A DNA stretch of 64,000 nucleotides from an uncultured bacterium (GCA_964562405.1 CAZLTC010000006.1:1372-65371), one strand, 5' to 3'; counted from the stretch's first letter, positions 919 to 49,438 are shown. Notes: generated by a model from the letters alone, not told the origin. Numbers and translations: made by a program.

Positions 919-1914
919 ATGCAACGCGATCTCGATGGAGACGGGCGTCTCGTGATGGGCGTCGTCTTCAGGAAGGCGCGCGGTCTTTACGACGTCAACG
1001 GCATCGACGGACACGTTCGATGCTCGATATCGAACAGGCTGCGGAAGGAACTTGTGTACCCGTTGTCCGACCCCAACTCGGGGACCTCGCGCGGTGTGAG
1101 GCGCGTGGAGGACATAAGCATGGTGGACCCGGTCGCCATCGGCGACGAGGTGCTCTACGTGCCTGCGGGGCAGGGACAGGGCCAGATCCGGGAGGTGAGG
1201 CCGAGGCGAAACGCCCTGACGCGCTGCGTCCAGGACGTCAAGCGCAGGGGCGAGGGCAGGTCGGTCGACCAGGTCATCGTCGCGAACGCCGATCAGATGG
1301 TGGCGGTCTTCGCGGCGGCCAAGCCCAGGCCCACGTGGCACCTCCTGGACCGCTATCTGGTAGGCGCCGAGGCCTCCGAGATAAGCGCCCTGATCTGCGT
1401 CACCAAGATGGACCTGGATGCCGGCGGGCTAACTCGAGCCGACCTGGCCATCTACGAGAATCTAGGCTACCAGGTCGTCTTCACGAGCGTTGTGACCGGC
1501 GAGGGAGTCGACGCGATGCGTGGCGCCCTGGACGGCAGGATATCCGTGTTCGTAGGCAAGTCGGGAGTTGGGAAGACCTCTCTTCTGAACGAGCTGCAGC
1601 CAGGGCTAGGCCTGTACGTGAAGGAGGTGAGCGAGAGCTCCGGAAAGGGGAGGCACGCTACGACCCACCTTGAGATGTTCCCGCTGGATGGTGGTGGGGG
1701 TGTGGTGGACACGCCCGGCATGAAGCTCTTCGAGCCGGCCGCAGACGCCATGGAGCCCGCCTTCTACTTCCGCGAGTTTCGACCGCTTCTTGGTAGCTGC
1801 CGCTTCGGCGCCGACTGCTCACACACGCACGAACCAGGGTGCGCGATAAAGGAGGCGGTCCAGGCAGGCGAGGTCAGTGAGAGAAGGTATCAGAGCCTCC
1901 TCAAGATGCTCTAG
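919..1914 (+). CDS. rsgA: Ribosome small-subunit-dependent GTPase A (circularly permuted GTPase RsgA/YjeQ), copy 1
   Basis: OB-fold N-terminus (GVVFRKARGLYDV...CSISNRLRK), P-loop GKSGVGKTSLLN, C-terminal Zn-finger C-x5-C..H..PGC. ORF is open from 880; ATG 919 has GGGAG 8 nt upstream and is preferred. Confidence 0.85.
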   Translation: MQRDLDGDGRLVMGVVFRKARGLYDVNGIDGHVRCSISNRLRKELVYPLSDPNSGTSRGVRRVEDISMVDPVAIGDEVLYVPAGQGQGQIREVRPRRNALTRCVQDVKRRGEGRSVDQVIVANADQMVAVFAAAKPRPTWHLLDRYLVGAEASEISALICVTKMDLDAGGLTRADLAIYENLGYQVVFTSVVTGEGVDAMRGALDGRISVFVGKSGVGKTSLLNELQPGLGLYVKEVSESSGKGRHATTHLEMFPLDGGGGVVDTPGMKLFEPAADAMEPAFYFREFRPLLGSCRFGADCSHTHEPGCAIKEAVQAGEVSERRYQSLLKML

Positions 1915-2073
1915 GCGAGGCCAAAGAGGCCCGGGACTGGGCCCGGCCGTGTGGTGACGCGTCCAGCGGGCGCGCAGCGGCCGGGCCCAAGCGTCCCGTA
2001 GCACGGCCGAACCGTCCTGTGCTAGAATCGCGAGCACCGCTACGGAAGAGCAGCACTCACACAGGAGGCACTC

Positions 2074-5000
2074 ATGTCCAGCGCCGTGAAGCGTGGAGCG
2101 TTGTGCGCCGTCTTGGCTTGTCTGGTATTCGCCGCGACGGCCTCTGCGGAGCCCGTGACATTCACGTTCAAGCCCCCGGAGAGCATGCAGGTCAACACCG
2201 TGTCCCTTAGGGGGGATTTCAACAACTGGGGCGAGACGCCGATGGTGAAGGGCGACGGAGACGTTTGGAGCGTCACTGTCGACCTCACTCCCGGGGATCA
2301 CCAGTACAAGTACTTCATCAACAGCGAGTGGCCGCAGGACATGTCCACGTGGCTGGACGGAGGTCCGGTGGACCCGGAGGCCGACGACTACATAGACGAT
2401 GCGAACGGTGGGCTGAACGCGGTGCGCAGCGTGGGCGGCGCCAAGCCCGCTCAGAAGCAGGTGTTCGAGGCGGCACCGCCTCTCAAGGACGGCTTCCTGA
2501 GGATCCACTACGACCGTCCCAAGGGTGGGTACGACGGGTGGGGCCTGCACGTCTGGCAGGACGTCGTTCCGACGGTCGAGTGGACGAGTCCGCTCCCTCC
2601 GACGGGACGTGACAACTTCGGTGTCTACTGGGACGTCGAACTCACGAAGGACGCCAAGAGCGTTGGCTTCATCGTGCACAAGGGCGACACGAAGGACCCG
2701 GGTCCCGACATGTTCATCGACATAGCCAAGCAGGGGACCGAGGTGTGGCTGGTCTCAGGGTCGCCCGTCATCAACACGGAGGAGCCAGACGTGTCATCTC
2801 TCGCCTTCGGCAACCTCGACCGCCAGCGCGCCCACTGGGTTGACCGTTCCACGATCGCCTGGAAGGTGAAGTCGGGCGACGGCGACGTGTTCACGCTCCA
2901 CGTCGGCGGCGCGGACGGGCTGACGCTGACGAAGGACGGAGTGACCGGAGGAGAGGACATCGCTCTCACCATGTCGGGAAGCAACCTGCCCAGGGAGACG
3001 CTGGCGAAGTTCCCGTACCTCGCGGGCTGCAAGGCGCTGACTCTGCCGAGTGACAAGCTCGACGCGGTCCCGTCGTTCCTCAAGCAGGAACTGGCGGTCT
3101 CGGTGAAGGGTCCCGACGGCGTCGTGAGCGACGCGACGGGCCTTCAGATACCCGGTGTGCTCGACGACGTGTTCGCGTACGACGGGCCGCTCGGCGTGAA
3201 CTGGGGCCAGGGCGTTCCAACCGTGAGCGTCTGGGCGCCCACGGCTCAGAAGGTCTGGCTACACGTGTTCGACACGTCCGATGCGCCGGAGTCCTCGGCG
3301 GTTCTCGAGATGGCCGAGGACACGGGCGTGTGGAGCGTGACCGGAACACCCGACTGGAAGGACAAGTTCTACCTCTACGAGGTCAAGGTTTACGTGCCGT
3401 CTACGCGCGCGGTCGAGCGCAACATGGTGACGGACCCCTATTCCAGAAACCTCTCGATGAACAGCAAGCGCAGCCAGTTCGTCGACCTCGACGACCCCTC
3501 GCTCAAGCCCGAAGGATGGGACGGGCTGACGAAACCGACGCTCGAGGCACCGGAGGACATCGTCCTCTACGAGCTGCACGTGCGCGACTTCAGCTCCAAC
3601 GACCCGACCGTTCCTGCGGGCCACGTCGGGACGTTCGCGGCCTTCGCAGACGACACGAATGGCGCACGTCACCTGCGCGCGCTGGCCGAGGCGGGTCTGA
3701 CACATGTGCATCTCCTGCCCGCGTTCGACATAGCTTCTGTAGACGAGGACAAATCGACGTGGAAGGGGCCCGGGGATCTCTCGATCTATCCTCCCGACTC
3801 CGACCAGCAGCAGGCGGCCGTAGCCCGCATCCAGGGCGTCGACGGCTTCAACTGGGGCTACGACCCCTACCACTTCGGAGTGCCTGAGGGGAGCTACTCG
3901 ACCGACCCGGACGGCACGGCCCGCATAGTCGAATTCAGGATGATGGTCAAGGCTCTGGCCGACATGGGGCTCCGCGTCGTGATGGACGTCGTGTACAACC
4001 ATACGAACGAGAGCGGGCTGGGCGACAAGTCGGTCTTCGACAAGATCGTCCCCGGCTACTATCACAGGCTCAACGCCGACGGCTTCGTGGAGACGAGCAC
4101 TTGCTGCCAGAACACGGCCAGCGAGCACTACATGATGGGGCGGTTCATGGTCGACGACCTCGTTCACTGGGCGCGTGACTACAAGGTGGACGGCTTCCGC
4201 TTCGATCTCATGGGCCACCACATGAAGAGCAACATGGTCGAGATTCGCGACGCGCTGCACGCGCTGCGTCCTGAGACCGACGGTGTCGATGGTGATACCA
4301 TCTACCTGTACGGTGAGGGATGGGACTTCGGCGAGGTTCAGGGCGGCAAGCGCGGCGTCAATGCGACGCAGCAGAACATGGCCGGCACCGGCATCGGCAC
4401 GTTCAATGACCGCATAAGAGACGCGATACGAGGCGGCTCGGCGTTCGGCGACAGACGTGACCAGGGTTTCGCCACCGGGCTGTATACCGACCCCAGCGGT
4501 TTCAACGGTTCCGGCCCGAACGAGCGCGAGGCGCTGCTCAAGTCGATGGACCGCATCCGCATCGGCATGACCGGCAACCTCCGCAACTATCTTCTCATCG
4601 ACTTCCGGGGCAACGAGGTGCGCGGCGGGAACATGGAGAACGTCGGATACACGACGGACCCTCAGGAGGTCATCAACTACGTGTCGGCCCACGATAACGA
4701 GACGTGGTTCGACAAGGTCCAGTTCGCCGCGCCGAAGCAGGCGACGATGGCGCAGCGCGTCCGGATGCAGAACCTGGGCCTGTCGGTCGTGGCGTTGGGG
4801 CAGGGCATACCGTTCTTCCACGCCGGCTCCGACATGCTCCGCTCCAAGTCCATGGACAGAGACAGCTACAACTCGGGCGACTGGTTCAACAAGGTCGACT
4901 GGTCGTATGAAGCCAACAACTTCGGAGTGGGACTCCCCATAGCCGACAAGAACCAGGATCGGTGGAACATAATGAGGCCGCTCCTGGCGAGAGCCGACAT

Positions 5001-5415
5001 CACGCCAGGCCGCGACAGCATCATGGCCGCCGTCCACCACTTCAGGGAGCTCCTGGCGATCAGGAAGAGCACCGTGCTGCTGCGCCTCAGGACGGGGGAG
5101 GACGTGCAGGCACGTGTCCGATTCCACAACGTCGGCCGCGATCAGGTGCCCGGACTCATCGTCATGAGCGTATCTGACGTGGTGCCGGAGCTTCGTCCGA
5201 TCGACCCGAACTACAAGAACGTTGTGGTGGTGCTGAACGCGACGCCGAAGACACAGGTCTACGGAGAGAACGGCTGGAAGGGGAGCGCCTTCGAGCTGCA
5301 TCCGGTGCTCAGCATGTCACACGATGAGGTCGTCAAGCAGTCGAGCTACGATTCGAACGATGGGACCTTCAGTGTTCCCGCAATGACGGCCGCCGTGTTC
5401 GTCGAGCCGGAGTAG
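2074..5415 (+). CDS. Secreted pullulanase-type GH13 glycoside hydrolase (type I pullulanase-like) with N-terminal carbohydrate-binding modules
   Basis: Signal peptide MSSAVKRGALCAVLACLVFAATASA. GH13 conserved regions DVVYNHT, GFRFDLMGH, YGEGWDF, YVSAHDN. AGGAGG 6 nt upstream of ATG. Confidence 0.85.
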   Translation: MSSAVKRGALCAVLACLVFAATASAEPVTFTFKPPESMQVNTVSLRGDFNNWGETPMVKGDGDVWSVTVDLTPGDHQYKYFINSEWPQDMSTWLDGGPVDPEADDYIDDANGGLNAVRSVGGAKPAQKQVFEAAPPLKDGFLRIHYDRPKGGYDGWGLHVWQDVVPTVEWTSPLPPTGRDNFGVYWDVELTKDAKSVGFIVHKGDTKDPGPDMFIDIAKQGTEVWLVSGSPVINTEEPDVSSLAFGNLDRQRAHWVDRSTIAWKVKSGDGDVFTLHVGGADGLTLTKDGVTGGEDIALTMSGSNLPRETLAKFPYLAGCKALTLPSDKLDAVPSFLKQELAVSVKGPDGVVSDATGLQIPGVLDDVFAYDGPLGVNWGQGVPTVSVWAPTAQKVWLHVFDTSDAPESSAVLEMAEDTGVWSVTGTPDWKDKFYLYEVKVYVPSTRAVERNMVTDPYSRNLSMNSKRSQFVDLDDPSLKPEGWDGLTKPTLEAPEDIVLYELHVRDFSSNDPTVPAGHVGTFAAFADDTNGARHLRALAEAGLTHVHLLPAFDIASVDEDKSTWKGPGDLSIYPPDSDQQQAAVARIQGVDGFNWGYDPYHFGVPEGSYSTDPDGTARIVEFRMMVKALADMGLRVVMDVVYNHTNESGLGDKSVFDKIVPGYYHRLNADGFVETSTCCQNTASEHYMMGRFMVDDLVHWARDYKVDGFRFDLMGHHMKSNMVEIRDALHALRPETDGVDGDTIYLYGEGWDFGEVQGGKRGVNATQQNMAGTGIGTFNDRIRDAIRGGSAFGDRRDQGFATGLYTDPSGFNGSGPNEREALLKSMDRIRIGMTGNLRNYLLIDFRGNEVRGGNMENVGYTTDPQEVINYVSAHDNETWFDKVQFAAPKQATMAQRVRMQNLGLSVVALGQGIPFFHAGSDMLRSKSMDRDSYNSGDWFNKVDWSYEANNFGVGLPIADKNQDRWNIMRPLLARADITPGRDSIMAAVHHFRELLAIRKSTVLLRLRTGEDVQARVRFHNVGRDQVPGLIVMSVSDVVPELRPIDPNYKNVVVVLNATPKTQVYGENGWKGSAFELHPVLSMSHDEVVKQSSYDSNDGTFSVPAMTAAVFVEPE

Positions 5416-5640
5416 CGGCTCGGCGATCACGAATGGAGCTTGTGGATGGGGGTCGGGCCGCATCGGTCCGGCCCCCGTCCGTCCAGAGGAGAAGCGGATG
5501 CGTCGTCGAATGGCGCCGGTCGCCCTCCTGCCCTAGGGTGAGCCACAACCGCCGTGGCGTGAGCGGCAGGCATCGCCGGTCGACCTGACCGCGCGCGGCA
5601 CTCCGTGGGCGCCCGAACCAGGCGAATCCGCAGGCCCTCC

Positions 5641-5669
5641 TTGCGCATCTAACCTGAATGTGGTAAACT
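5641..5669 (+). promoter_or_regulatory. Candidate promoter TTGCGC-N17-(TG)GTAAACT, extended -10, for the M6-like protease gene
   Basis: tTGtGGTAAACT extended -10; AT-rich island in a GC-rich context, 70 nt upstream of ATG 5739. Confidence 0.4.
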
Positions 5670-5738
5670 ATGAATTGGCGGCGGGTTAGCGGTAGTGACC
5701 CGGCGTTCGGCGGATTTGGCACATGCTTGGAGGAAAGT

Positions 5739-8585
5739 ATGCGTGGTCCAGCGCTCCCGGCGCCCGCGTTTGCCGTGTTGGTGGCCGGATTAATGAGCCT
5801 TGCAGCGGTCTCGGCGCTTGCCGCGCCGATGAACGGGGACATTGTGACGATTCGCCAGGCTGATGGGTCGTTCATTGACCTGGCGGTCTGGGGTGATGAG
5901 TTCTACGCGGTCGGGGAGACGCCGGACGGTTACACGGTCGTGCGCGATGACGTGACCGGCGTCTATTGCTACGCGAAGGTCTCGGCGGATGGGAACAAGC
6001 TCGTGTCGACGGGCATCCCTGCGGCGATCGGGCAGGTGCCCGCGGGCCTCTCGAAGCACGTCCGAGTCGACCGGGAGGCGGCTAGCGCGAAGGCCCGCGA
6101 GGTTAGGCAGGCCTTTGAGGCGCGCGAGCTGCAGGATTTGTCTGTTCTGCCCGAACCTCCCGGGCGCTCGCGCGGGACGTCGACGGGCAGCGTGACGGGG
6201 CTCACGCTCATCGTCGACTTCTCAGACGATGTGGGGACGATACCGCCCAGCTCCATCGATGACTTCTGCAACCTCGAGGGGTACACCGGATACAGCAACA
6301 ACGGTTCCGTGCGCGACTACTTCGATGACGTATCCGGAGGACTGCTCGACTATACCAACTATGTTTCGACCGCGTACTACCGTGCTGCGAACCCGAAGTC
6401 CTACTACACCGATCCCTCGGTCTCCTACGGGACCCGGGCCGTCCAGCTGATCAAGGAAGCGTTGAACGCTCTCGATGCGGCGGGGTTCGATTTCAGCGCG
6501 TACGACGCGGACGGGAACGGGAGCATAGACGCTCTGAACTGCTTCTACGCCGGCGCGACCTGGAACAACTGGGCCGAGGGCCTGTGGCCTCACTCAGGCT
6601 GGATGTCGTGGTGCGCGGACGGAGTGTGCACGCAGCGATATCAGATCTCGAACCTGGGAAGCTCTCTCAGGCTCGGCACGTTCGTGCACGAGAACGGCCA
6701 CATGCTGATGGGTTGGCCGGATCTCTATGACTACGACGGGGACTCGGCGGGCGTCGGCCAGTTCTGCGTGATGTGCTCGGTCGGACCGGGTACGAATCCG
6801 ATCGAGCCTTGCGCCTACATGAAGTACACGGCGGGTTGGGCCGACTTGTCGATGCCGACCGGCTACGAGAACGGCCTCTCCGCACCGAGTGCCGGGAACG
6901 TCGTCTACAAATTCGACAAGCCGGGCGCGCCCAACGAATACTACCTCGTTGAGAACCGGCAGAAGACCGGACGGGACAGCGCGATTCCAGACAATGGGCT
7001 TGCCATATGGCACGTCGACGAGAACGGCAGCAATGACTGGCAGCAGCGGACGCCGGACTATCACTACGAAGTCACTCTCGTGCAGGCCGACGGAGACTGG
7101 GATCTCGAGCACTACAACAACAATGGTGACAGCTACGACCTCTACGCGGCCACCGCGGAGACGGAGTGCACTCCCACCACATACCCCAACACCGACTGGT
7201 GGGACGGGAGCGAGTCGGGTTACTACTTCACGAACATCAGCTCGTCGAGCTCCGTGATGACGTTCGACTTCGCAGATGGTCCTCCGTTCAACCCCGAGTT
7301 CACCGCGCCGGTCTTCGCGTGCGAGATCGAGAAGTCGGGCTCGGCGACTTATCTAACCACTATCAGAAACCCCGGTAGTCTGTCCGGCAACGCCGACGTG
7401 GATATCGAGCAGGAGATCCTGCCCGACGGCGTCACGGACACCGACTGGACCGCCACCTACAGGCAGGTCGGCGGGCCGTGGCTCTCCACTCCCTCGTCCT
7501 TTTACCTTGGTCCGGGCGAGGAGATCGATATGGAAGTGAGGTTCGAGGACGGCATGGGTACCATGGAGGGGATGTGCCTGACGACGCTCACCGCGACCGT
7601 CAGCTCCGACCCGACGCTCTCGAACAAGGGATCGTTCGCGACGTTCGTGGACATGCCATGCGTGGCGATCATCGACGACGACAACGGAGCCGCGAACGAG
7701 ACATACCTCGCCACCGCCCTGGAAGATGCTGGATACTGCGCCAGGGTTTGGGACGCCTCGTCCCGCGGCCGGCCCAGCATCGAGGAGCTGTCGTCGTACA
7801 GCGCGGTCTTCTGGACGACGGCCGGAGGTGACGCCTCGTATCTGAGCGCGGACGACGAGCAGAACCTGATGGACTATCTCGACGGGGGTGGCGACCTCTT
7901 CATGTCCAGCATGGGCTACCTCACGGCCAGGACAGCACCCAACGCCTTCACCCAGGACTACCTGCACCTGGACTCGTGGCAGGACGACGTGGTCGCCTTC
8001 TCGGCGGCCGGGGTTGCCGGCGACCAGATATCCGATGGCATGAGTCTCATGCTCCTGGCGGGTCCCGTTTCCTCGAGTGGCTCCGATGCGATGGTGCTGG
8101 ACACACCGGCCGAGGCCATCTTCAGCGCGTCGTCGAACGTGACGGGCCTCAAGGTGGCGGAGGGCGACCACAAGATCGTCTTCCTCTCATTCGCCTTCGA
8201 GAACGTCAAGACCGCCACGGAGGACCCGAACAACCAGAGGACTCTCGTCTCCAGGGTCATGGACTGGTTCATGAACACGACGGGAGTCGATGATCTCACG
8301 ATCGGACGGCTCGCACTCGGGCACAACTACCCGAACCCGTTCAATCCGACCACGAACATCGCCTTCTCGGTGCCTGATGGGACCGAGCCCGTGGCTCTCC
8401 GGGTCTACAGCGTGGACGGCCGTCTGGTGAGGACGCTCGTGGATGGAGCTGTGCCTGCCGGGCCGCATACCGTGCTCTGGGACGGGACGAATGATGCCGG
8501 CGTGAGCGTGGCCTCTGGTGTCTACTTCGCGCGTCTGAGTTCGGCGGGAGAGACGAAGCAGACGAAGATGGCGCTCCTCAAGTAA
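5739..8585 (+). CDS. Secreted M6-like (immune-inhibitor-A-type) zinc metalloprotease with shared C-terminal sorting domain
   Basis: HENGH zinc motif followed by PDLYDYDG as in the M6 family; hydrophobic signal after M at 5739 (GGAGGAAAG upstream). The ORF-track start 5670 sits directly on the predicted -10 element and is unlikely. C-terminus NYPNPFNPTTNIAFSVP...GVYFARL...KMALLK. Confidence 0.75.
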   Translation: MRGPALPAPAFAVLVAGLMSLAAVSALAAPMNGDIVTIRQADGSFIDLAVWGDEFYAVGETPDGYTVVRDDVTGVYCYAKVSADGNKLVSTGIPAAIGQVPAGLSKHVRVDREAASAKAREVRQAFEARELQDLSVLPEPPGRSRGTSTGSVTGLTLIVDFSDDVGTIPPSSIDDFCNLEGYTGYSNNGSVRDYFDDVSGGLLDYTNYVSTAYYRAANPKSYYTDPSVSYGTRAVQLIKEALNALDAAGFDFSAYDADGNGSIDALNCFYAGATWNNWAEGLWPHSGWMSWCADGVCTQRYQISNLGSSLRLGTFVHENGHMLMGWPDLYDYDGDSAGVGQFCVMCSVGPGTNPIEPCAYMKYTAGWADLSMPTGYENGLSAPSAGNVVYKFDKPGAPNEYYLVENRQKTGRDSAIPDNGLAIWHVDENGSNDWQQRTPDYHYEVTLVQADGDWDLEHYNNNGDSYDLYAATAETECTPTTYPNTDWWDGSESGYYFTNISSSSSVMTFDFADGPPFNPEFTAPVFACEIEKSGSATYLTTIRNPGSLSGNADVDIEQEILPDGVTDTDWTATYRQVGGPWLSTPSSFYLGPGEEIDMEVRFEDGMGTMEGMCLTTLTATVSSDPTLSNKGSFATFVDMPCVAIIDDDNGAANETYLATALEDAGYCARVWDASSRGRPSIEELSSYSAVFWTTAGGDASYLSADDEQNLMDYLDGGGDLFMSSMGYLTARTAPNAFTQDYLHLDSWQDDVVAFSAAGVAGDQISDGMSLMLLAGPVSSSGSDAMVLDTPAEAIFSASSNVTGLKVAEGDHKIVFLSFAFENVKTATEDPNNQRTLVSRVMDWFMNTTGVDDLTIGRLALGHNYPNPFNPTTNIAFSVPDGTEPVALRVYSVDGRLVRTLVDGAVPAGPHTVLWDGTNDAGVSVASGVYFARLSSAGETKQTKMALLK

Positions 8586-8640
8586 CGCTGCCCGGCGTCC
8601 GCACCGCGGACGCTGGAACATCGCGAGTCGAGAATGCGGC

Positions 8641-8692
8641 TGTTGCATCGAGACGCCCTGTGCGAAAGCACGGGGCGTCTTCTTCAATGCAA
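8641..8692 (+). terminator. Long GC hairpin (inner stem GAGACGCCCTGTGC / GCACGGGGCGTCT, GAAA loop, outer arms GTTGCAT / ATGCAAC) followed by TCTTCTTC; terminator after the M6-like gene
   Basis: Inverted repeat seen directly; a second smaller hairpin lies at 8594-8612. Confidence 0.5.
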
Positions 8693-8806
8693 CATCGGGA
8701 AACGGTTGTCACACTTCACTCGTCTGGTACGGCACTTGCCCTGCTTGTGCACAATGTGTGTCAGGAACGTCTCACGTCACGAACGGGGGAAGGGAGATAC
8801 GGCGAG

Positions 8807-9901
8807 ATGAGAACATCGATCGTCCTAGTCTGCGCGGCAGTTCTGTGTGTCCCGGCGATCTGCGCCGGCCAGGAGTCCTACATCACGCTCGAGGAGAACA
8901 CCTGGGGCAACGCGCACAAGGAGTTCAACCTTGTGACGATACCCGATTGGATCGACAGCCTGGTGACGACCGGGTCGCCGCTCGTCATGGGGAAGCCAGG
9001 CCGGTCTCTGACGTTCGCGGACGGATCCGAAGAGGCGATACTCGCCGCGCTCCCGGCGTCGGGCCAGCCGGCCGTCCTGCCGGAGGACCTCGGCGACGCT
9101 CTGGTCGACTCGACGTGCGCCCTTCCCGAAGGGCTCCCGGCCAGCAAGAAGGGCAAGCTCAAGAACTCGCTTCTAGGTGAGACGATGGCGCTGGCCCTCA
9201 ACGCGAGGCTCGACCCGGAGCTGATAGACCTGGACGTCTGCTCCGTGATGATGACCGTAAACGTGCTGGCGGGCCCAGATGAGCTCTACGGTACAGAGGA
9301 CGACTCGCTGTGCGCGATGTGCGACACGATGACGATACGCATCCCGGAGGCCGTTCTGTCCGCGCTCCAGGATAGCATGGGCGTGGAACCTACCGTCGGG
9401 AACGTCCTCGAGTTCGCGAACATGGCGCTCGCGGGAGAGGGCACGTACGACGCCACCCTCAAGGGCGTATGGCACGCGGTGAAGAACATCAATCGTGGCT
9501 TCAAGAACTACCGCATGCTTGTCTACTGCGAGGGCGATACGGGCGGAGTGCCGATCGACATCAAGGGCGCGCCCGGCACTTCCGGAGGTCCTGAGGATCG
9601 CGCCGAGTCGATGGCGAGCGCCGTCGCGCTGTCGGCCTCGAGTCCGGTGAGCGACCGGGCGTTCGTCTACTTCACGGTGCCCGAGGCCAGCCGAGTGACG
9701 CTCTCTGTCTACAACGTCGCCGGCCGCGAGGTGGCGACTCTCCTGAACGGTCAGGTCTTCCAGGATCGCGCCACGGTGGAGATGGCCGCCGACAATCGAA
9801 GTGCCCTTCCGTCCGGAGTCTACTTCGTGAGAATGACGGCGGTTGGCGTCGCCAGCGGTGCCGAATACAGACAAACGGCCAAGATGCTGGTGGTTCGCTG
9901 A
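8807..9901 (+). CDS. Hypothetical secreted protein with divergent copy of the shared C-terminal domain
   Basis: Start MRTSIVLVCAAVLCVPAICAG (signal peptide) with GGGGGAAGGGAG upstream. C-terminus ...VYFTVPEASRVTLSVYNVAGREVATLL...GVYFVRM...KMLVVR. The ORF-track 5' extension from 8660 lacks an RBS/signal. Confidence 0.6.
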   Translation: MRTSIVLVCAAVLCVPAICAGQESYITLEENTWGNAHKEFNLVTIPDWIDSLVTTGSPLVMGKPGRSLTFADGSEEAILAALPASGQPAVLPEDLGDALVDSTCALPEGLPASKKGKLKNSLLGETMALALNARLDPELIDLDVCSVMMTVNVLAGPDELYGTEDDSLCAMCDTMTIRIPEAVLSALQDSMGVEPTVGNVLEFANMALAGEGTYDATLKGVWHAVKNINRGFKNYRMLVYCEGDTGGVPIDIKGAPGTSGGPEDRAESMASAVALSASSPVSDRAFVYFTVPEASRVTLSVYNVAGREVATLLNGQVFQDRATVEMAADNRSALPSGVYFVRMTAVGVASGAEYRQTAKMLVVR

Positions 9902-10006
9902 CCCCGGTCCAGCCCCTGACCCCGGTGCCCTCCTGGCACCTTCCTCGGCCGCCGCCCCCAACCTCGGGGCGGCGGCGCCTCGTTTACTTCCCCCTGCAGA
10001 TTCCCC

Positions 10007-10054
10007 TTGACAGCCTGCGACAGTCGTCGCAGAATATGTGTGACAGTTGTCGCG
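10007..10054 (+). promoter_or_regulatory. Promoter -35 (TTGACA) plus two GACAGTYGTCGC dyad repeats: candidate BlaI-family operator upstream of blaI-blaR1-like genes
   Basis: GCGACAGTCGTCGC (10017-10030, perfect palindrome) and GACAGTTGTCGC (10042-10053), 11 nt apart, between TTGACA and the ATG at 10077. Confidence 0.35.
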
Positions 10055-10076
10055 GACCCCCGAACAAGGAGTCGCC

Positions 10077-10538: not shown

Positions 10539-10584
10539 CATATCGCGCGTGGTGGAAGGACCCCCGCGCGTCGGAGGTACGACG

Positions 10585-15855: not shown

Positions 15856-15870
15856 TGCACGGCTGGGTCG

Positions 15871-38850: not shown

Positions 38851-38890
38851 CCGGGAACAGGTCGGTCTTCGACAGCGGACATCAGGCAGA

Positions 38891-38918
38891 ACGCCCGGCA
38901 GGATCTCCTACCGGGCGT
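38891..38918. terminator. Hairpin ACGCCCGG-(12-nt loop)-CCGGGCGT + TTTCG between convergent PAP2 (+) and M16 (-) genes; candidate bidirectional terminator
   Basis: 8-bp GC stem seen directly; located in the 114-nt convergent intergenic gap. Confidence 0.4.
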
Positions 38919-38964
38919 TTCGCTGTCCTTACGCGTCCGTGATTCGAACCGCTTCCTGAAGGGC

Positions 38965-41583: not shown

Positions 41584-41859
41584 CTATCCCTCCCTGTACC
41601 GGGTTGCACTGGAACGGGCAGCCTCATCCGCGTTTCCAGGAGCACCTGAACACGGGCCGCCGACAAGGCTTCGCAGTGCCCTGAAGCGGCGGCCCCTCAG
41701 CGACTTTGACCCCAGTATAGACAGGCCGGTTGCAGCGGTCAAGGAACCGGGACGGCTGAGGGCGCGAGGGCACCCTTAATCTCGTTGCGAGACCGCGCGA
41801 TGCCCCTTAGGATGTAGGCGATTCTGCCGTACTGACCGCTGTTCGGGGAAGGAGCCTCA

Positions 41860-42627
41860 GTGAGGGACGAGACCAGGCTGGCGGCCGACGCCGCCAACGC
41901 TGCGGGCAGGCAGCTCAGGGAACGCTTCGAACGGTCGCATGAGGTGGAGAAGAAGAGCCGGCGTGAGCTCGTCACCGAGATGGACCGCGCGTCGGAGGGG
42001 ATCATCCTCTCCGCGATCCGGGCGGAGTATCCCGACGACGCCGTGACAGCCGAGGAGAGCCGTCCGGTGCAGGGATCGTCCGGACGCGCCTGGATCGTCG
42101 ACCCGCTGGACGGGACCAACAACTACGCGCACGGGTACCCGTTCTTCTCGGTCGTCGTCGCGTTCGAGGAGGGCGGAGAGGTCGTCTCGGGCGTCGTCTA
42201 CGACCCTCTCAGAGACGAGCTGTTCGCCGCCGAGGCCGGCGCCGGAGCCACGGTCAACGGTTCGCCCATCAGGGTCTCCGAAACCGACTCGGTCGCGGAC
42301 TCGATCGTCGCGACCGGATTCCCCTACGACCGCACCGCTCTGAACGACAACAACCTCGCAAACCTCAACAGATTCATACTGTCGGTCCGCGGCATACGGA
42401 GGGCCGGCTCCGCCGCGCTCGACCTCGTCTACGTCGCGTGCGGCCGGCTCGACGGCTACTGGGAGCTGGCACTCAATGCCTGGGACGTCTCCGCCGGCGG
42501 CCTCATAGTGCGGGAGGCGGGCGGCCACGTTACGAACTTCGCATCGAAGGGTTGGGACCATCGCCGAGGCGACATCGTCGCCAGCAACGGTCGGATACAC
42601 GACGAGATGCAAAGCCTGATAGGGTGA
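41860..42627 (+). CDS. Inositol monophosphatase-family (SuhB/IMPase-like) phosphatase
   Basis: WIVDPLDGTNNYAHGYPFFSVVVA metal-binding motif, WDVSAGGLIVREAGG. GTG start with GGAAGGAG upstream. Confidence 0.8.
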   Translation: MRDETRLAADAANAAGRQLRERFERSHEVEKKSRRELVTEMDRASEGIILSAIRAEYPDDAVTAEESRPVQGSSGRAWIVDPLDGTNNYAHGYPFFSVVVAFEEGGEVVSGVVYDPLRDELFAAEAGAGATVNGSPIRVSETDSVADSIVATGFPYDRTALNDNNLANLNRFILSVRGIRRAGSAALDLVYVACGRLDGYWELALNAWDVSAGGLIVREAGGHVTNFASKGWDHRRGDIVASNGRIHDEMQSLIG

Positions 42628-42649
42628 GTCTTCACGCTCGGAGATTCTG

Positions 42650-44095
42650 ATGAGAGTGTTCACGGTATTGCCGGCGGCCGCGTCGCGTGCTGCGCTCGCG
42701 GTGGCCGCCGCGGTCACCGTCGGCCTGACGCCGGCGCTGGGCGTCCTGCTGTCGCCAGGCGCCGCCCTCGCGGCGGAGGATCGCGAGTCTGAGGTCCTCA
42801 CGCTCGACGTCGCGGTCAGCATGGCGCTCGAGCGCAACCTCGGCCTGGAGGCGGCGCGCGAGGACTACGAGTCGGCCAAGTGGGGTCTTCGCTCAGCGAG
42901 AGCATCGCTCTTCCCGTCGGTCGGTCTGTCGTCCACGGCACGCCGCGTCGATCCGGAGACCTACAGACGCGCCAACGCCTCGCTGGACTATATCGAGGAG
43001 TTCGGAGTCGACCTCGATCCGTTCCTGTACGAGACTACCTACGAGACGAGTTTCTACCTGACGGTGCCCATCTGGAACGGCGGGAAGCTCTGGGGCGCCG
43101 TAGGAGCCGCCGGCGGGGGACGTGACGCGGCCAGGCAGGCATACGAGTCGAAGAGACGGGCGGTGATCGTCGATGCGGAGTCCGCGTACTTCGATCTGCT
43201 GAGAGCGCAAGATCTCGTGGACGTGCAGACCCAGGCGGTGTACGCCGCCTCCGACAATGCCACCGCGGCCGCGCGCAGGTTCGAGGTCGGGCTGACGAAC
43301 CGTGCCGAGGCGTTGCGTTGGGAGGTGCAACGCGCGGACGAGGAGCGCAAGCTCGTGGAGGCCGAGGGCGCGCTAACGCTGGCGCGGACGAGGCTTCTCA
43401 ACGTTCTGGGGTTGCCGCTCGACGCGAGCCTCACGCTTGCGGACGTGTCAGAGGATCTGCTCGCCGCGGCCGCGGACCGGTACGATGCCACGGTAGGGAG
43501 GGGCGACCTGACAGAGGAACGGGCGCTCGAGTTGCTCGCGGACAACCCTGAGCTCTTGGCCATGGACGCGGTCACCCGCTCGAGCGAGTCCGGCGTGGCC
43601 ATCGCGAGAGGCTCTTTCCTGCCGGCCCTGAACGCATCGGCAAGCTACGGTTGGAAGGCGGACGACGACATCGATCCGGACGACGGGACCGCATGGTCCG
43701 TGACCCTGGCGCTTGACGTCCCAGTGTTCACGAGTTTCAAGAACCTCTCCGACTACCAAAGCAGCAAGCGCGCGTACTTCGCGTCGCTTCGTAGGCAGGA
43801 GGACGGCGAGCGCAATCTCGTGACCGCGCTTCGGGCCGCGGACTCCACCGTTCGCTCCTCGCTGAAGCGCGTCGCAGCCGCCCGCGTAGAAGAGGAGCTG
43901 GCAGCCGAGCTTCTGAAGAACGTGCGAAATACGTACACGCAGGGGATGGCGACCAACACCGAGCTGGTCGATGCCGAAGTGCTCTATGGCCTCAGCCGCG
44001 TGAGCGCGGTAGACGCGCTCTACGATTGCCTGATCGCCCTCGCCGAGACCGAGAGGCTCATCGGCCCGCCCGCCGAGAACGAAACCGGAGAATGA
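42650..44095 (+). CDS. TolC-family outer-membrane efflux protein
   Basis: Signal peptide; two repeated coiled-coil/beta-barrel halves typical of outer-membrane factors. Translationally coupled to the downstream MFP. Confidence 0.75.
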   Translation: MRVFTVLPAAASRAALAVAAAVTVGLTPALGVLLSPGAALAAEDRESEVLTLDVAVSMALERNLGLEAAREDYESAKWGLRSARASLFPSVGLSSTARRVDPETYRRANASLDYIEEFGVDLDPFLYETTYETSFYLTVPIWNGGKLWGAVGAAGGGRDAARQAYESKRRAVIVDAESAYFDLLRAQDLVDVQTQAVYAASDNATAAARRFEVGLTNRAEALRWEVQRADEERKLVEAEGALTLARTRLLNVLGLPLDASLTLADVSEDLLAAAADRYDATVGRGDLTEERALELLADNPELLAMDAVTRSSESGVAIARGSFLPALNASASYGWKADDDIDPDDGTAWSVTLALDVPVFTSFKNLSDYQSSKRAYFASLRRQEDGERNLVTALRAADSTVRSSLKRVAAARVEEELAAELLKNVRNTYTQGMATNTELVDAEVLYGLSRVSAVDALYDCLIALAETERLIGPPAENETGE

Positions 44096-45222
44096 TGATG
44101 AGACGATTGGCGACCTTGCTGTCCATGTTCGTGGTTGTGCTTATGCTCCCCCCGGCACTCACCGGTTGCGGCGGTCGGCCCGGAGACGGCGAGGCCGCTG
44201 GAACCGCCGAGGCGCGCACGCCCGTCGAGGTGGACGTTGTGGAGCCGCACACGGCGGTTCTCGAGATCTCAGCGGTGGGCACGATCGAGGCGCGGGAGGA
44301 CATCCTCGTTAGCTCGGAGGCAGCCGGTCAGGTGGTCGATGTGCCCGTGATGGTGGGGGACGGGGTGGCGGAGGGTGACGTTCTGGTCAGGCTTGACGAC
44401 GAACTGGCTGAGCTCTCGGTCCAGCAGGCCGACGCCCAGCTCCTGCTCGCAGAGGCCGACCTTGACAACGCTGAGGCCAACCTGAAGCGTGTGACCAACC
44501 TCTGGAAGGGCGGCGACGTCTCCGATTCCGACCACGAAGCCGCCGAGAGAGCGGCCAAGGTCGCCAGGGCCGGTCACATGGCGGCCGCCGCGGCGCGAGC
44601 GAGCGCCGGCAGGCAGCTTCGCAACACCGAGATCGGCAGCCCGATCGACGGGGTCGTCGCGTTCGTCCACGTCGAGGGGGGGCAGCTCGTCGGCGTCGGC
44701 ACTCCGATCGCCCAGGTCGTCAACGACGAGACCGTGCAGGTGGAGATCGGTCTCAACGAGAACGAGATCGTCGACGTCCGCCGTGGCGCGCCCGCGTCGG
44801 TTCGTATCCGGGCGCTGCCTGGCGAGACGTTCGCCGGTACCGTGGAGTACGTAGGTCCCAAGGCCGACGAGATGACCAGTACCTATCCCGTTCGGGTCGT
44901 CGTCCCGAATCCAAAGGGGCGCCTGCGGTCCGGCATGGTGGCGGAGGTCACGCTGACAGCCCGGCGGTTTGAGGATTCGATCGTGATAGAGCGGGACTGG
45001 GTCGCCGAGCGCTTCGGCGAGCCGTCCGTGTTCGTGGTCGTCGACTCCACAGCGGCGGTCAGGAAGGTGAGACTGGGCCGCATCATCGGTGACGGTGTGG
45101 TGGTGACCTCGGGGCTCGAGTCGGGCGATCGAGTGATTTCGTTCGGGTACGACCAGCTGACCGAAGGTGCGCCCGTCGACGTGCGCAACGAGAAGGTCGA
45201 CGTGGGCGACGAAGGGGAGTGA
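44092..45222 (+). CDS. Efflux RND periplasmic adaptor (membrane fusion protein), lipoprotein
   Basis: MMMRRLATLLSMFVVVLMLPPALTGCGG lipobox; HlyD-like biotinyl/lipoyl and beta-barrel segments. ATG overlaps the tolC-like stop (ATGA). Confidence 0.8.
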   Translation: MMMRRLATLLSMFVVVLMLPPALTGCGGRPGDGEAAGTAEARTPVEVDVVEPHTAVLEISAVGTIEAREDILVSSEAAGQVVDVPVMVGDGVAEGDVLVRLDDELAELSVQQADAQLLLAEADLDNAEANLKRVTNLWKGGDVSDSDHEAAERAAKVARAGHMAAAAARASAGRQLRNTEIGSPIDGVVAFVHVEGGQLVGVGTPIAQVVNDETVQVEIGLNENEIVDVRRGAPASVRIRALPGETFAGTVEYVGPKADEMTSTYPVRVVVPNPKGRLRSGMVAEVTLTARRFEDSIVIERDWVAERFGEPSVFVVVDSTAAVRKVRLGRIIGDGVVVTSGLESGDRVISFGYDQLTEGAPVDVRNEKVDVGDEGE

Positions 45223-45285
45223 TGACCGCCTCGCCGGACGCGTGGCGGGAGCCCTGCCCGACGGGAGTCTGAACGGAGCCAGAGC

Positions 45286-48200
45286 GTGCACATAGGTGAG
45301 TTCTCCGTACGACAGCCGGTGCTCGTCAACCTCGTGTTCATAGCCGTCCTCGTGGTCGGCGTGTTCACGTTCTTCAACATGCCCGCCGAGCTCCTCCCGA
45401 ACGTCAATATGGACGAGGCCGTCGTGGTCGTCTTCTACGCGGGTGTATCGCCCGAGGAGATGGAGACGCTCGTCACGAAGCCCCTCGAGGAGGAGATAGA
45501 CGCCGTAGAGGACATCGACAGCGTGTCATCGACGTCGGGAGAGAGCCGGTCCATCATCGACGTCAGGTTCAAGCCCGGCCTTTCCGACGACGAGTTCGAC
45601 CGCAGGATCCTTGACCTGCGTTCCGCGGTCGGGAACGCGAGATCCGAGCTTCCGGAGGACGCCGGCGACCCCGAGGTCGTTCCCATCAAGCTGGGCGAGG
45701 TCATTCCTATCCTGTCGCTGAGCATCGGTGGGCCCGTCAGCGACACCGTTCTGCGGGAGGTCGCCGATGACCTGCGAGACGATATCCTCGACGTCGACTA
45801 CGTGCGCGCTGTCGACGTCGTGGGCCAGCGCGAACGCGAGATATGGGTCGAGCTGGACGCCGACAGGCTGGAATCGTACGGGCTGCCCATAGGTCAGGTC
45901 GTGGCTTCGCTTTCGTCCCGCAATCTGAACGTCCCGGCGGGAACGCTCGACCTTGGTCAGTCCGAGTACATCGTGAGGACGCTGGGCGAGTTCGAATCTC
46001 TCACCGACATCGAGGACAGCGTCATCGCGTCGGACCCGTACGGAAGGCAGATCCGGATCAGGGACGTCGGCGCCGTCCGGGACACGCTGGAGGTCCGCCT
46101 ATCGGCCGCCCGACTGGACGGCGAGAAGAGCGTGACCCTCTGGGTGATGAAGGACAAGGAGGGGAGCGTTGTAAACGTCGTCGACGACGTGAGGGCCGTT
46201 GTCGATTCATACGGAAAGCGGCTCACCGAAGACGTCAGCTTCGAGATCCGGAACGACACGTCGATAGAGGTCCGCGACGTTCTGCACATCCTCGAACGCA
46301 ACGCGGTGTTCGGCATCATTCTCGTCGCTCTCATCCTGTTCGTTTTCATCGGCTTCAGGAACGCGGTGCTCGCGTCGATCGGCATCCCGTTCAGCTTCCT
46401 GGCGGCCTTCATCCTGATGAACGCGGCAGGAGTGACCGTGAACACGCTGTCGCTCTTCTCGCTGGTTCTCGTTCTCGGCATGCTGGTCGACGACGCCATC
46501 ATCGTCATAGAGAACATCTATCGCCACATGGAGCATGGCATGCCCGCCAGACAGGCGGCCGTGGTTGGGACCGGGGAGGTCCTGGCTCCGGTCACGGCGG
46601 CCGTGCTCACCACGGTCGCGGCCTTCCTGCCCCTCCTCCTCATGTCAGGGCTCTGGGGCAAGTTCATGAGCGTGATACCGAAGGTTGTCACGTTCGCTCT
46701 GCTTGCATCGCTCGTTGAGGCATTCCTCGTGCTCCCTTCGCACATGGCTGACTTCGCGCGCGTCACCCCCAGGGCGACCAGGTGCCACCCGCAGTTCGTG
46801 TCGTTCACCAGATGGTACGAGCGCATTCTCCGTCGCGCGCTGCTGAGGCGCTATCGCACGATGCTGCTCGTCGGCGTCCTCGCTCTCGTTGCCATCGGTC
46901 TGGTCTTCACTCTCGACGTCGTCATATTCCAGGAGGAGGACCTCAACCAGATCGAGATTCGCGCTCAGACTGCGGTCGGGACGCGCCTCGATGTCACCGA
47001 CCGGGTGGCTCGCGAGATAGAACAAGTCCTCTTCGAGCTGCCTTCCGACGAGGTCGAGGCCGTTGTGACGAGGGTCGGCTTCATGATCCGCAATTACCGT
47101 GGGGAGCTGGCCTCGAACAACATGCAGTTCAACGTCGACCTGGTCGACTACGAGCTGCGCGACAGGTCCGACGACGAGATCATGGAGGCCGTGCGGAGGC
47201 GTATCTCGTCGGAGGTGCCGGGACTGACGTTCCTTTCTCTGTCGAGGCCGCAGCAGGGGCCCCCGTCAGGGCGACCTGTCGAGGTGCGCGTGAAGGGCGA
47301 GGACCCCGGTGTGCTGCGTCGCATAGCGAACGAAATGGAGGCGCTCCTGGCGACTTATCCCGGCGTCGTTGACATCGACGACGACATGACGCCCGGCAAG
47401 TCTGAGCTGAACGCGAGGATCATTCCCGAGGCGGCGGCGCTCTACGGCCTCACCGCGTACGATATCTCGTCAACGGTGCGGGCCGCGTTCGAGGGCGTCG
47501 ACGCCACGAAGTACCGGGGAGCCGGCGACGACGAGATCGACATCGTCGTGAGGCTGGAAGAGCCCGACCGGAGCGACCTTGAGGACCTGAGGGGCCTGAG
47601 GGTCATCTCACCGACCGGCCGGTCCGTGCCGCTGGGCGCAGTAGCGGAGTTCTCAATAGACGCGGCTCCGGCGGAGCTGCACAGAAGAGACGGGGACCGT
47701 GTCGTCACCGTGACCGGCGGTGTCGCCGGAGCGACGACGTCGACGGAGGTCAACCGCATGCTCCAGAGGGACCTTGCCGACGTCCCGGACCGCTACCCGG
47801 GCTATCGTCTGGACTTCGGTGGCGAGTACCAGGAGACGCAGGAGTCGTTCGCGTCGCTCCTCATGGCGTTCCTGGTTGCCATCATGCTCATCTACCTGAT
47901 CCTCGGCACCGAATTCCAGTCGTTCATCCAACCCCTCATAGTCATGTTCACGGTGCCGTTCGCCTTCATCGGTGTCGTCATAGGGCTCGTCGTCATGCGT
48001 TACCCGTTCACGCTGAACGCGGGCGTGGCGATCGTGGCTCTCGCGGGAGTGGTCGTGAACGACTCCATCGTGCTCGTCGACTTCATCAAGAAGGCCAGGG
48101 CCGAGGGTGTGACGCGCTGGGAATCGGTGGTGCAGGCCGGCTGCATGCGTCTTCGGCCGATTCTGCTGACGTCGATCACGACGATACTCGGAGTGCTGCC

Positions 48201-48429
48201 GCTCGCGATGGGGTGGGGCGGCGTGTCGGTCACCTGGGGACCGATGGCTGCGTCGCTGGCCTGGGGTCTGGCGTTCGCGACCGTGCTCACGCTGTTCGTG
48301 ATACCGGCGCTCTTCTGCATCGTCGATGATGTGCGGGCCCGCTTCGGCAAGCTTGACGTGCCCGGCGGGCGCCAGCCGGACCAGGACCTCAAGGTCGTCG
48401 AGGCGTTGTGCCGTGACCTGGAGGAGTGA
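45286..48429 (+). CDS. RND (HAE1/AcrB-like) efflux transporter permease
   Basis: 1047 aa with 12 TM segments and two large periplasmic loops; AcrB-family conserved segments. Confidence 0.85.
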   Translation: MHIGEFSVRQPVLVNLVFIAVLVVGVFTFFNMPAELLPNVNMDEAVVVVFYAGVSPEEMETLVTKPLEEEIDAVEDIDSVSSTSGESRSIIDVRFKPGLSDDEFDRRILDLRSAVGNARSELPEDAGDPEVVPIKLGEVIPILSLSIGGPVSDTVLREVADDLRDDILDVDYVRAVDVVGQREREIWVELDADRLESYGLPIGQVVASLSSRNLNVPAGTLDLGQSEYIVRTLGEFESLTDIEDSVIASDPYGRQIRIRDVGAVRDTLEVRLSAARLDGEKSVTLWVMKDKEGSVVNVVDDVRAVVDSYGKRLTEDVSFEIRNDTSIEVRDVLHILERNAVFGIILVALILFVFIGFRNAVLASIGIPFSFLAAFILMNAAGVTVNTLSLFSLVLVLGMLVDDAIIVIENIYRHMEHGMPARQAAVVGTGEVLAPVTAAVLTTVAAFLPLLLMSGLWGKFMSVIPKVVTFALLASLVEAFLVLPSHMADFARVTPRATRCHPQFVSFTRWYERILRRALLRRYRTMLLVGVLALVAIGLVFTLDVVIFQEEDLNQIEIRAQTAVGTRLDVTDRVAREIEQVLFELPSDEVEAVVTRVGFMIRNYRGELASNNMQFNVDLVDYELRDRSDDEIMEAVRRRISSEVPGLTFLSLSRPQQGPPSGRPVEVRVKGEDPGVLRRIANEMEALLATYPGVVDIDDDMTPGKSELNARIIPEAAALYGLTAYDISSTVRAAFEGVDATKYRGAGDDEIDIVVRLEEPDRSDLEDLRGLRVISPTGRSVPLGAVAEFSIDAAPAELHRRDGDRVVTVTGGVAGATTSTEVNRMLQRDLADVPDRYPGYRLDFGGEYQETQESFASLLMAFLVAIMLIYLILGTEFQSFIQPLIVMFTVPFAFIGVVIGLVVMRYPFTLNAGVAIVALAGVVVNDSIVLVDFIKKARAEGVTRWESVVQAGCMRLRPILLTSITTILGVLPLAMGWGGVSVTWGPMAASLAWGLAFATVLTLFVIPALFCIVDDVRARFGKLDVPGGRQPDQDLKVVEALCRDLEE

Positions 48430-48478
48430 ACGGGGCCGTGCGCGCGAGCGCGAAGATGAGGCCTTCGAGGAAGATGCT

Positions 48479-49438
48479 GTGACGGAGACACTTGGAAACC
48501 GGGCGGCGCGTGGTGCGGACGACGGTAGCGAGATCCGGGGGCAGGTTCTCGCGTGCTTCCACGACGAGTGGGAGGTCGCGCTGTCGGGAGGCCCGATCGT
48601 CCGCGCGTCGATCCGGGCGCGGCACTTCCTGGGCCTTCCGCGCGAGGAGAAGATCCTCGTTGCCGGAGACCACGTTGAACTCGCGCGCGTGAGAGACGTA
48701 GCCTACGTCATCGAGCGGCGTCTGCCGAGGTCGACCATCCTCTCCAGGCTCCTGCCCGGAGCCCGGCGCGACAAGGAGCAGGTGATCGTGGCCAACGCCG
48801 ACCTCCTCGTGGCCGTCGGCTCGCTCTCCTCGCCGGCGCTCAACAGGCGCCTGCTCGATCGCTTTCTCGTGATCGCCGAGGACGCTGGTCTGGAGTCGGT
48901 CGTCGTCCTGAACAAGGTCGACCTCGTGAGCGAGTCGGACTGGTCCCATGTCGCTCTGGGCTACGCGGCCGCGGGATACGCTGTGATCGCGACCTCCGCT
49001 ACGGAGGGCCGCTGCGTCGAGGAGCTGTCCGCGCGTCTAGCCGGCCGTTTCACGGTCTTCGCCGGTCCGAGCGGAGCGGGGAAGAGCTCCTTGCTGAACG
49101 CCATCGAGCCCGGCCTGGGCCTCAGGGTCAGAGAGGTGAGCGCCAAGACCGGCAAGGGGAAGCACACAACGTCCAACGTGACCGTGCTCAGGTTGGATGA
49201 TGGCTCTCTCGTGGCTGACACTCCGGGCTTCCGGGAATTGGGCTTCTGGAGGATCGACCCGGGCGAGCTGGACCAGCTCTTCCCCGAACTGCGCGCTCTC
49301 GCGCCGCAGTGCAGGTTCAGGGGATGCAACCATATCCCGGAGCCCGGCTGCGCCGTCACACGCGCGCTCGAGGAAGGCCGTCTTGATGGTGAGCGCTACG
49401 AGAGCTACGTGAAGCTCTTCGAGGAGCTGTCCGGCTGA
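48479..49438 (+). CDS. rsgA: Ribosome small-subunit-dependent GTPase A, copy 2 (RsgA paralogue)
   Basis: Same architecture as copy 1: OB-fold, P-loop GPSGAGKSSLLN, Zn-finger CRFRGCNHIPEPGC. GTG 48479 with GAGGAAG upstream; the ORF-track start 48326 overlaps the RND gene. Confidence 0.75.
   Translation: MTETLGNRAARGADDGSEIRGQVLACFHDEWEVALSGGPIVRASIRARHFLGLPREEKILVAGDHVELARVRDVAYVIERRLPRSTILSRLLPGARRDKEQVIVANADLLVAVGSLSSPALNRRLLDRFLVIAEDAGLESVVVLNKVDLVSESDWSHVALGYAAAGYAVIATSATEGRCVEELSARLAGRFTVFAGPSGAGKSSLLNAIEPGLGLRVREVSAKTGKGKHTTSNVTVLRLDDGSLVADTPGFRELGFWRIDPGELDQLFPELRALAPQCRFRGCNHIPEPGCAVTRALEEGRLDGERYESYVKLFEELSG

Follow-up and report, generated by a model that had tools for sequence, protein, structure and literature searches.

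Two divergent RsgA GTPases in a Candidatus Eisenbacteria genome, one of them apparently acquired and preceded by a conserved leader with a short upstream open reading frame

Why would a bacterium keep two different genes for RsgA (YjeQ/CpgA), a GTPase of late small-subunit maturation? Most bacteria have a single rsgA gene, as was stated in the first-pass annotation of the DNA described here, and this is borne out by the use of RsgA as a BUSCO single-copy marker (PMC7828034, Table 1). The stretch in question, 64,000 nucleotides (nt) from an uncultured bacterium (GCA_964562405.1, CAZLTC010000006.1:1372-65371; hereafter the window), harbours two of them, called rsgA1 and rsgA2. Our analyses suggest that the host belongs to Candidatus Eisenbacteria (Eiseniibacteriota) and stably keeps two functional RsgA proteins of different origins, rsgA2 being the native gene and rsgA1 an acquired one, a reading to which we assign a probability of roughly 0.7.

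The two genes had been described as encoding full-architecture RsgA proteins that differ strongly in sequence, and the coordinates and motifs (Table 1 below), the structural models and the pairwise identity of 40% over 238 residues (37-40% across comparisons) all agree with this description. In both proteins an OB fold, G motifs in the permuted order G4-G1-G3 and a C-terminal Cys3His zinc finger are present, and the P-loops are as originally quoted, GKSGVGKT in copy 1 and GPSGAGKS in copy 2, each followed by SLLN. Both sequences score well above the cutoffs of PF03193 (rsgA1, E = 9e-50, 169 bits; rsgA2, E = 2e-52, 178 bits; cutoff 30) and TIGR00157 (219.6 and 231.4 bits, respectively; cutoff 100), and below those of the lineage-specific equivalogs PRK12288 and PRK12289. 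The Pfam RsgA_N signature matches neither copy; the five-strand N-terminal barrel of the OB fold is found in both AlphaFold models, whose predicted local distance difference test (pLDDT) scores are 81 for rsgA1 and 87.5 for rsgA2. A GGGAG Shine-Dalgarno (SD)-like site lies 8 nt 5' of the rsgA1 start codon.

By sequence, both copies match every solved RsgA/YjeQ/YloQ chain, with E values from ~1e-50 to ~1e-22. In Foldseek alignments of more than 300 columns, both models matched full-length RsgA structures at template modelling (TM) scores of 0.73-0.78, including 1U0L and the 30S-bound forms 5NO2 and 7BOI. The residues of the G motifs and the zinc ligands are invariant in the family alignments (54 members for copy 1 and 55 for copy 2). 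From this conservation and the structural similarity to 30S-bound RsgA (5NO2, 7BOI), we infer that both proteins retain every element needed for 30S-dependent GTPase action in late small-subunit maturation, and that their GTPase activities are likely to be stimulated by the 30S subunit. Nevertheless, they are only 29-35% identical to the solved RsgA proteins (1U0L, 1T9H, 2RCN, 6H4D, 5NO2 and 7BOI). Copy 1 differs from known RsgA by an insertion of ~28 residues in the OB fold, a TKxD instead of an NKxD motif and a C-x5-C instead of a C-x4-C spacing in the zinc knuckle, and copy 2 by an unusual GxSGAGKSS P-loop.

Could the pair be an artefact, either a chimera of DNA from two organisms or an intact gene accompanied by a decaying pseudogene? 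The window is uniform in composition, with an even guanine-plus-cytosine (GC) content of 0.63-0.70, a GC content at third codon positions (GC3) of 0.82 for copy 1 and 0.84 for copy 2, and codon-usage distances typical of those of 20 other window genes examined. The window corresponds to an NCBI/JGI contig of 67,949 bp, and independent Logan assemblies contain identical proteins. As called for at the outset, we looked for the two copies in related genomes and found both, with the same neighbours, in two metagenome-assembled genomes (MAGs), in which the closest relatives of both sides of the window also reside. These are JBDRIO01 (GCA_043815815.1, Candidatus Eisenbacteria bacterium; MFH1501693 and MFH1501940, 74% identity for each copy) and CAYNQF01 (GCA_964399265.1; contigs 62 and 31, 80% and 82% identity, respectively). 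In both MAGs, rsgA1 is located between an S9 peptidase gene and a pullulanase gene, and rsgA2 follows genes for an M16 peptidase and an inositol-monophosphatase-family protein (IMPase) and precedes those for an alternative GlmU, a PDZ protein and a C25 peptidase. In favour of a chimera, it can be said that the two JBDRIO01 loci sit on different contigs, so that the 47-kb linkage is seen in the present assembly only.

Both reading frames are intact, and the catalytic and zinc-binding residues are invariant. The Nei-Gojobori ratios of nonsynonymous to synonymous substitution rates (dN/dS) are 0.13-0.29 for rsgA1 (five orthologues) and 0.12-0.32 for rsgA2 (four orthologues), close to the 0.14-0.30 of neighbouring genes; all these values are approximate, as dS is near saturation. 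Both copies are thus under purifying selection, and neither has decayed. Because the composition is uniform, dN/dS is well below 1 and both copies co-occur in two other MAGs in conserved surroundings, we rejected both the chimera and the pseudogene, the two outcomes that had been named as fatal to the original proposal, and an artefact of either kind is effectively refuted.

We next asked where the two genes come from. Each copy is 33-41% identical to the RsgA proteins of Actinomycetota, Planctomycetota, Bacillota and E. coli, and the distance between the copies is thus about the same as that of each copy to RsgA of other phyla. Their closest database neighbours differ. For copy 1 these are 33 close orthologues (60-83% identity), followed by proteins labelled Anaerolineales, Anaerolineae or Chloroflexota (52-61%). 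For copy 2 we collected at least 113 clusters, among them all the proteins with a Candidatus Eisenbacteria label (down to 56%); the next relative is a Longimicrobiales protein (51%). A scan of GTDB genomes, dominated by hundreds of actinobacterial rsgA genes, yielded four Eisenbacteria loci of copy 2 and none of copy 1, and a metagenome scan yielded one close copy-1 orthologue. A neighbour-joining phylogeny (132 sequences, 298 trimmed columns, 200 bootstraps) placed the two copies in separate clades, showing that they are not each other's closest relatives. The copy-1 orthologues form a clade with a support of 0.94, within a larger clade that also contains the Anaerolineales-, Anaerolineae- and Chloroflexota-labelled sequences (0.985). 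Copy 2 groups with all Eisenbacteria-labelled sequences (1.0), with Longimicrobiales as a weakly supported sister (0.66).

Discrete characters follow the same partition. The group formed by copy 1 and the Chloroflexota-labelled proteins is characterized by a TKxD motif (117 of 120 sequences), a C-x5-C-x-H-x5-C knuckle (120 of 120) and a conserved insertion of ~28 residues between OB strands 3 and 4, with the consensus LRKxLxYPTSDPxSG..R.VQ.V.DI..VDP. In the copy-2 group, NKxD is found in 115 and C-x4-C in 112 of the 118 members, together with the GxSGAGKSS P-loop. The term 'duplicated' used in the first-pass annotation is therefore probably inapt, since the copies fall into different RsgA subfamilies, that of copy 1 being shared with Chloroflexota-labelled sequences, as evidenced by the bootstrap value of 0.985 and the shared indels. 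A recent tandem or segmental duplication, which would make the copies in-paralogues, was discarded on the grounds that copy 1 is closer to Chloroflexota-labelled RsgA (52-61%) than to copy 2 (37-40%).

These data are read most economically with rsgA2 as the native gene and rsgA1 as an old xenologue of Chloroflexota type, which the ancestor of one Eisenbacteria sub-group probably acquired. Its acquisition would be old, because its composition is fully ameliorated, its orthologues diverge to ~60% identity and, for a given pair of genomes, it evolves at the same rate as rsgA2, as indicated by the identities of 74% and 74% with JBDRIO01 and 80% and 82% with CAYNQF01. Following this gain, rsgA1 was most likely inherited vertically at a fixed locus, between the S9 peptidase and pullulanase genes.

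An alternative history is that both subfamilies predate Eisenbacteria, through an ancient duplication in this lineage or through a very old paralogy followed by differential losses. The likeness of copy 1 to Chloroflexota proteins would then reflect the shared retention of an ancient paralogue, or a transfer from Eisenbacteria to Chloroflexota. The large distance between the copies and their equal rates within genome pairs are compatible with such a scenario, as is the Longimicrobiales sequence nearest to copy 2, whose knuckle is of the C-x5-C type and which shares 46% identity with copy 1. However, the copy-1 clade is small, with 34 clusters against at least 113 of the copy-2 type in the same database, which points to a subset of the phylum. 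The discrete indels and motifs common to copy 1 and the Chloroflexi-labelled proteins also argue against it, and no second subfamily member was found in the other phyla sampled, whose loci hold one match per genome. Old horizontal acquisition thus fits better than duplication within the lineage, and we consider an ancient paralogy rather unlikely. Several points nevertheless weigh against the acquisition of rsgA1. The internal nodes of the clade formed by copy 1 and its Chloroflexi relatives are poorly supported, with the Eisenbacteria clade either nested or sister, which bears on the direction of transfer; as branching within the 0.985 clade is weakly resolved, a transfer in the opposite direction and an ancient paralogy with losses are less probable alternatives. 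In addition, the taxon labels come from a handful of NCBI MAG names, and the tree was computed by neighbour joining only, on the 298 columns.

Table 1. Features of the two rsgA loci; positions are counted from the first nucleotide of the window.
Feature	Position	Strand	Remarks
S9 prolyl-oligopeptidase gene, 3' part	34..627	+	conserved upstream neighbour of rsgA1
Promoter-like element TTGACG-17-TATCCT	659..687	+	putative; consensus match only
Strong SD (GGAGGTG) and 19-codon upstream open reading frame (uORF)	721..791 (SD 721-727; uORF 732-791)	+	VSVTRESRSAEAHLEMPAN, then stop; conserved block in orthologue alignment
Downstream leader segment CCTCACGTGCGCTTCCGCTCGC	858..879	+	candidate alternative helix; may pair with uORF codons 9-15
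rsgA1	919..1914	+	Chloroflexota-type RsgA paralogue; ATG 919 to TAG 1914, 331 residues
rsgA1 OB fold	~952-1233	+	AlphaFold model
rsgA1 OB-fold insertion, ~28 residues	1045-1128 (residues 43-70)	+	conserved; low-confidence in AlphaFold model
rsgA1 G4, TKMD	1402-1413	+
rsgA1 G1 P-loop, GKSGVGKT(SLLN)	1555-1578	+
rsgA1 G3, DTPG	1708-1719	+
rsgA1 predicted zinc finger, C-x5-C-x-H-x5-C, CRFGADCSHTHEPGC	1798-1842	+	C294, C300, H302, C308
Pullulanase-type glycosidase	2074..5415	+	conserved downstream neighbour of rsgA1 in related genomes
IMPase gene	41860..42627	+	best NCBIfam match PRK10757 inositol-1-monophosphatase, below cutoff
RND efflux operon	42650..48429	+	between IMPase gene and rsgA2
RND operon, outer-membrane efflux protein (OEP)	42650-44095	+
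RND operon, membrane-fusion protein (MFP)	~44026-45222	+
RND operon, AcrB-type pump	45286-48429	+
rsgA2	48479..49438	+	Eisenbacteria-wide ('native') RsgA paralogue; GTG 48479 to TGA 49438, 319 residues
rsgA2 OB fold	~48533-48751	+	AlphaFold model
rsgA2 G4, NKVD	48911-48922	+
rsgA2 G1 P-loop, GPSGAGKS(SLLN)	49064-49087	+
rsgA2 G3, DTPG	49217-49228	+
rsgA2 predicted zinc finger, C-x4-C-x-H-x5-C, CRFRGCNHIPEPGC	49310-49351	+	C277, C282, H284, C290
Alternative GlmU-like nucleotidyl/acetyltransferase (altGlmU)	49487..50716	+	TIGR03991 'alt_bact_glmU', 370 bits; 48 nt past rsgA2

If both proteins act on the 30S subunit, the division of labour between them is probably regulatory, and the sole positive hint of specialization that we found is the separate, conserved leader of copy 1, which contains a uORF. 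Upstream of rsgA1 lie 291 nt of non-coding DNA, with what would be its own promoter-like site followed by a conserved leader of ~225 nt, presumably starting near 695, with a putatively translated uORF of 19 codons. The TTGAC hexamer of the promoter-like element is recognizable in five of eight orthologous loci. The 19-codon frame with its SD sequence (GGAGGT), start codon and TAG stop codon is in register in all eight copy-1 loci with enough upstream sequence, and the loci that carry it extend down to 62% protein identity. Outside the window, the leader with its SD and uORF is found in L003 (9797-9867), L084 (1455-1525), L085 (7801-7871), L086 (1458-1528), L168 (1408-1477), L169 (518-588) and L170 (2815-2886), and the consensus of the uORF is MSVtRE..sAgaHL[E/D]...., followed by the stop codon. 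Its translation is supported by synonymous third-position changes among these loci (TCG/TCT, GTG/GTA/GTC). The motif occurs nowhere else in ~170 loci or in the rest of the window, and the Chloroflexi-type relatives lack it in their upstream regions. In JBDRIO01, a gene for a hybrid histidine kinase/response regulator (L003 8133-9728) separates the S9 peptidase gene from the rsgA1 leader, which is retained with its uORF downstream of this insertion.

The uORF RNA may fold in two ways, by pairing with its own SD sequence or with a segment located further downstream. The SD sequence is complementary to an invariant GCACCTC within the uORF, at its His-Leu codons. Next to this GCACCTC lies GCGGAAGCGC, whose reverse complement, GCGCTTCCGC, is found without mismatch at positions 866-875. 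The predicted duplex between the uORF and the downstream segment has an energy of -28.5 kcal/mol (z = -3.35 relative to shuffled sequences), and z values of -2 or lower were obtained for five of eight orthologues, in which the position is constant (39-46 nt ahead of the rsgA1 start). By inspection, apparent compensatory changes can be seen in L086 and L169. Such a layout would suit an expression mode that responds to translation. Three results count against too firm a structural interpretation: the minimum free energy (MFE) of the whole leader is no better than that of shuffled sequences (z = -0.88), the long-range duplex reaches significance in only those five of eight orthologues, and the arms of the SD hairpin are invariant and therefore give no covariation.

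Control by leader peptides is known for translation-related or resistance genes, examples being the leaders of ermC and cat and the uORF of whiB7. The rsgA1 leader appears to resemble this type of control element, having a long 5' region, a short open reading frame with a strong SD sequence, and uORF RNA that may pair alternatively with that SD or with a segment just ahead of the gene. It differs from leader-peptide attenuators in that it has neither a U-tract terminator nor a recognized arrest-peptide motif, that it matches no Rfam family at gathering or at permissive thresholds, and that the support for its structure is partial. A speculative extension, which we hold to be doubtful, is that rsgA1 serves as a horizontally acquired 'spare' RsgA, switched on under translation or assembly stress by an undescribed uORF leader in which translation or stalling would remodel the helices.

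The setting of rsgA2 is different. It had been described as sitting directly behind an RND efflux operon and starting on a GTG that overlaps the end of that operon. The adjacency holds in the window, but GTG 48479 lies 49 nt downstream of the RND stop codon (48427-48429), without overlap. An alternative start, GTG 48413, would overlap the RND gene by 17 nt and yields the 341-residue database prediction P0121; it is possible, yet the aligned N-termini of orthologues favour 48479. Across the five genomes compared, the rsgA2-altGlmU pair is invariant, and the OEP-MFP-RND genes precede rsgA2 in four (the window, JBDRIO01, JALGWI01 and DAOWER01). In CAYNQF01, the closest relative (L004 4173-7169), the IMPase gene, 18 nt of spacer, rsgA2 and altGlmU are contiguous, and the pump is absent. 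An obligatory RND-rsgA2 functional unit was hence discarded; the association is incidental and does not represent a conserved functional link. As no terminator-like site was predicted between the RND, rsgA2 and altGlmU genes, their co-transcription is plausible, and rsgA2, set in the conserved cluster IMPase-[RND pump]-rsgA2-altGlmU, is probably expressed with its neighbours.

The PRK10757 model, which the IMPase gene matches best though below the cutoff, corresponds to E. coli SuhB, a protein with roles in the antitermination of rRNA transcription and in ribosome biogenesis. Given this role of SuhB, the adjacency may be a weak hint that rsgA2 is linked to ribosome biogenesis and is the housekeeping copy.

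The first-pass annotation had also raised the possibilities of specialized ribosome populations and of a moonlighting paralogue. In its broadest form, the latter alternative states that one copy acts mainly off the 30S subunit, the likeliest candidate being rsgA1, whose OB fold and zinc knuckle are modified, through a metabolic or moonlighting role similar to that of CpgA, or else that rsgA2 works for the efflux or cell-envelope genes among which it is embedded. There is precedent for the former, as CpgA of B. subtilis moonlights as a 4-phosphoerythronate phosphatase, a lineage-specific activity that E. coli RsgA lacks (PMC12445079). Also in favour, the OB insertion of copy 1 has a conserved sequence but a low model confidence, and rsgA2 is tightly packed between the RND pump and altGlmU genes with no predicted terminators. 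Against this, both copies retain the full set of RsgA hallmarks and can be superposed, as models, on the 30S-bound form, the peculiar features of copy 1 are common to the whole Chloroflexota-type subfamily, of which we assume that the members may be the only RsgA of their hosts, and the pump is dispensable for the neighbourhood of rsgA2. We know of no residues that are diagnostic of the CpgA phosphatase. Altogether, neofunctionalization of either copy seems quite improbable, more so than an ancient paralogy, and we favour two RsgA proteins that would both act in ribosome assembly.

A few other features of the window deserve mention. Two divergent tRNA genes, tRNA-Leu(CAA) at 53647-53734 on the minus strand and tRNA-Ala(GGC) at 53880-53956 on the plus strand, are located between the PDZ protease region and a large C25 peptidase gene. 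Many large, secreted-looking proteins encoded near both rsgA loci (window 5670-8585 and 54274-59058) end with an FlgD_ig-type C-terminal domain, and such ends are also found among the neighbours in L003, L085, L086, L168 and L170. The proteins that carry them include S8 and C25 peptidases, FG-GAP proteins and a metallophosphatase, and this domain may act as a tag for sorting or secretion that is typical of the lineage.

The presence of a second RsgA in one genome has precedent, and the case described here is a further pair of paralogues, in an uncultivated phylum. In S. coelicolor, one member of the SCO6149/SCO5211 RsgA pair is among the genes activated by WblC, the other being a housekeeping-type paralogue, and the WblC/WhiB7 regulon is induced by translation inhibitors (PMC7157823). 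Both systems thus have two RsgA paralogues per genome, and a regulatory split is suggested here by the private leader of rsgA1. They differ by phylum and by the means of control, WblC/WhiB7 being actinobacterial and the candidate control element here being a uORF leader; stress induction of rsgA1 is a hypothesis by analogy. The names of rsgA2 (lp_1687) in L. plantarum (PMC7278804), rsgA1 in L. monocytogenes (PMC12371860) and RsgA_2 in P. multocida (PMC5900567) imply, as numbered or suffixed gene names, second copies in these bacteria as well. Two aspects go slightly beyond these precedents: one copy apparently stems from another phylum, and it has a uORF leader of its own. Otherwise, the finding is that of an ordinary paralogue pair.

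RsgA is regarded as a near-universal, single-copy assembly factor; it serves as a single-copy marker and is under study as an antibiotic target. The stable maintenance of two very different RsgA proteins in a candidate phylum without cultured members calls for caution in using it as a strict single-copy marker when the contamination of Eisenbacteria MAGs is judged. The rsgA1 leader represents a small candidate for a new cis-regulatory element, and if rsgA1 were a spare gene induced by stress, it would be the counterpart, in an uncultivated phylum, of the Streptomyces RsgA paralogue that WblC induces. More generally, this case adds to the evidence that bacteria are able to keep alternative assembly factors under separate control.

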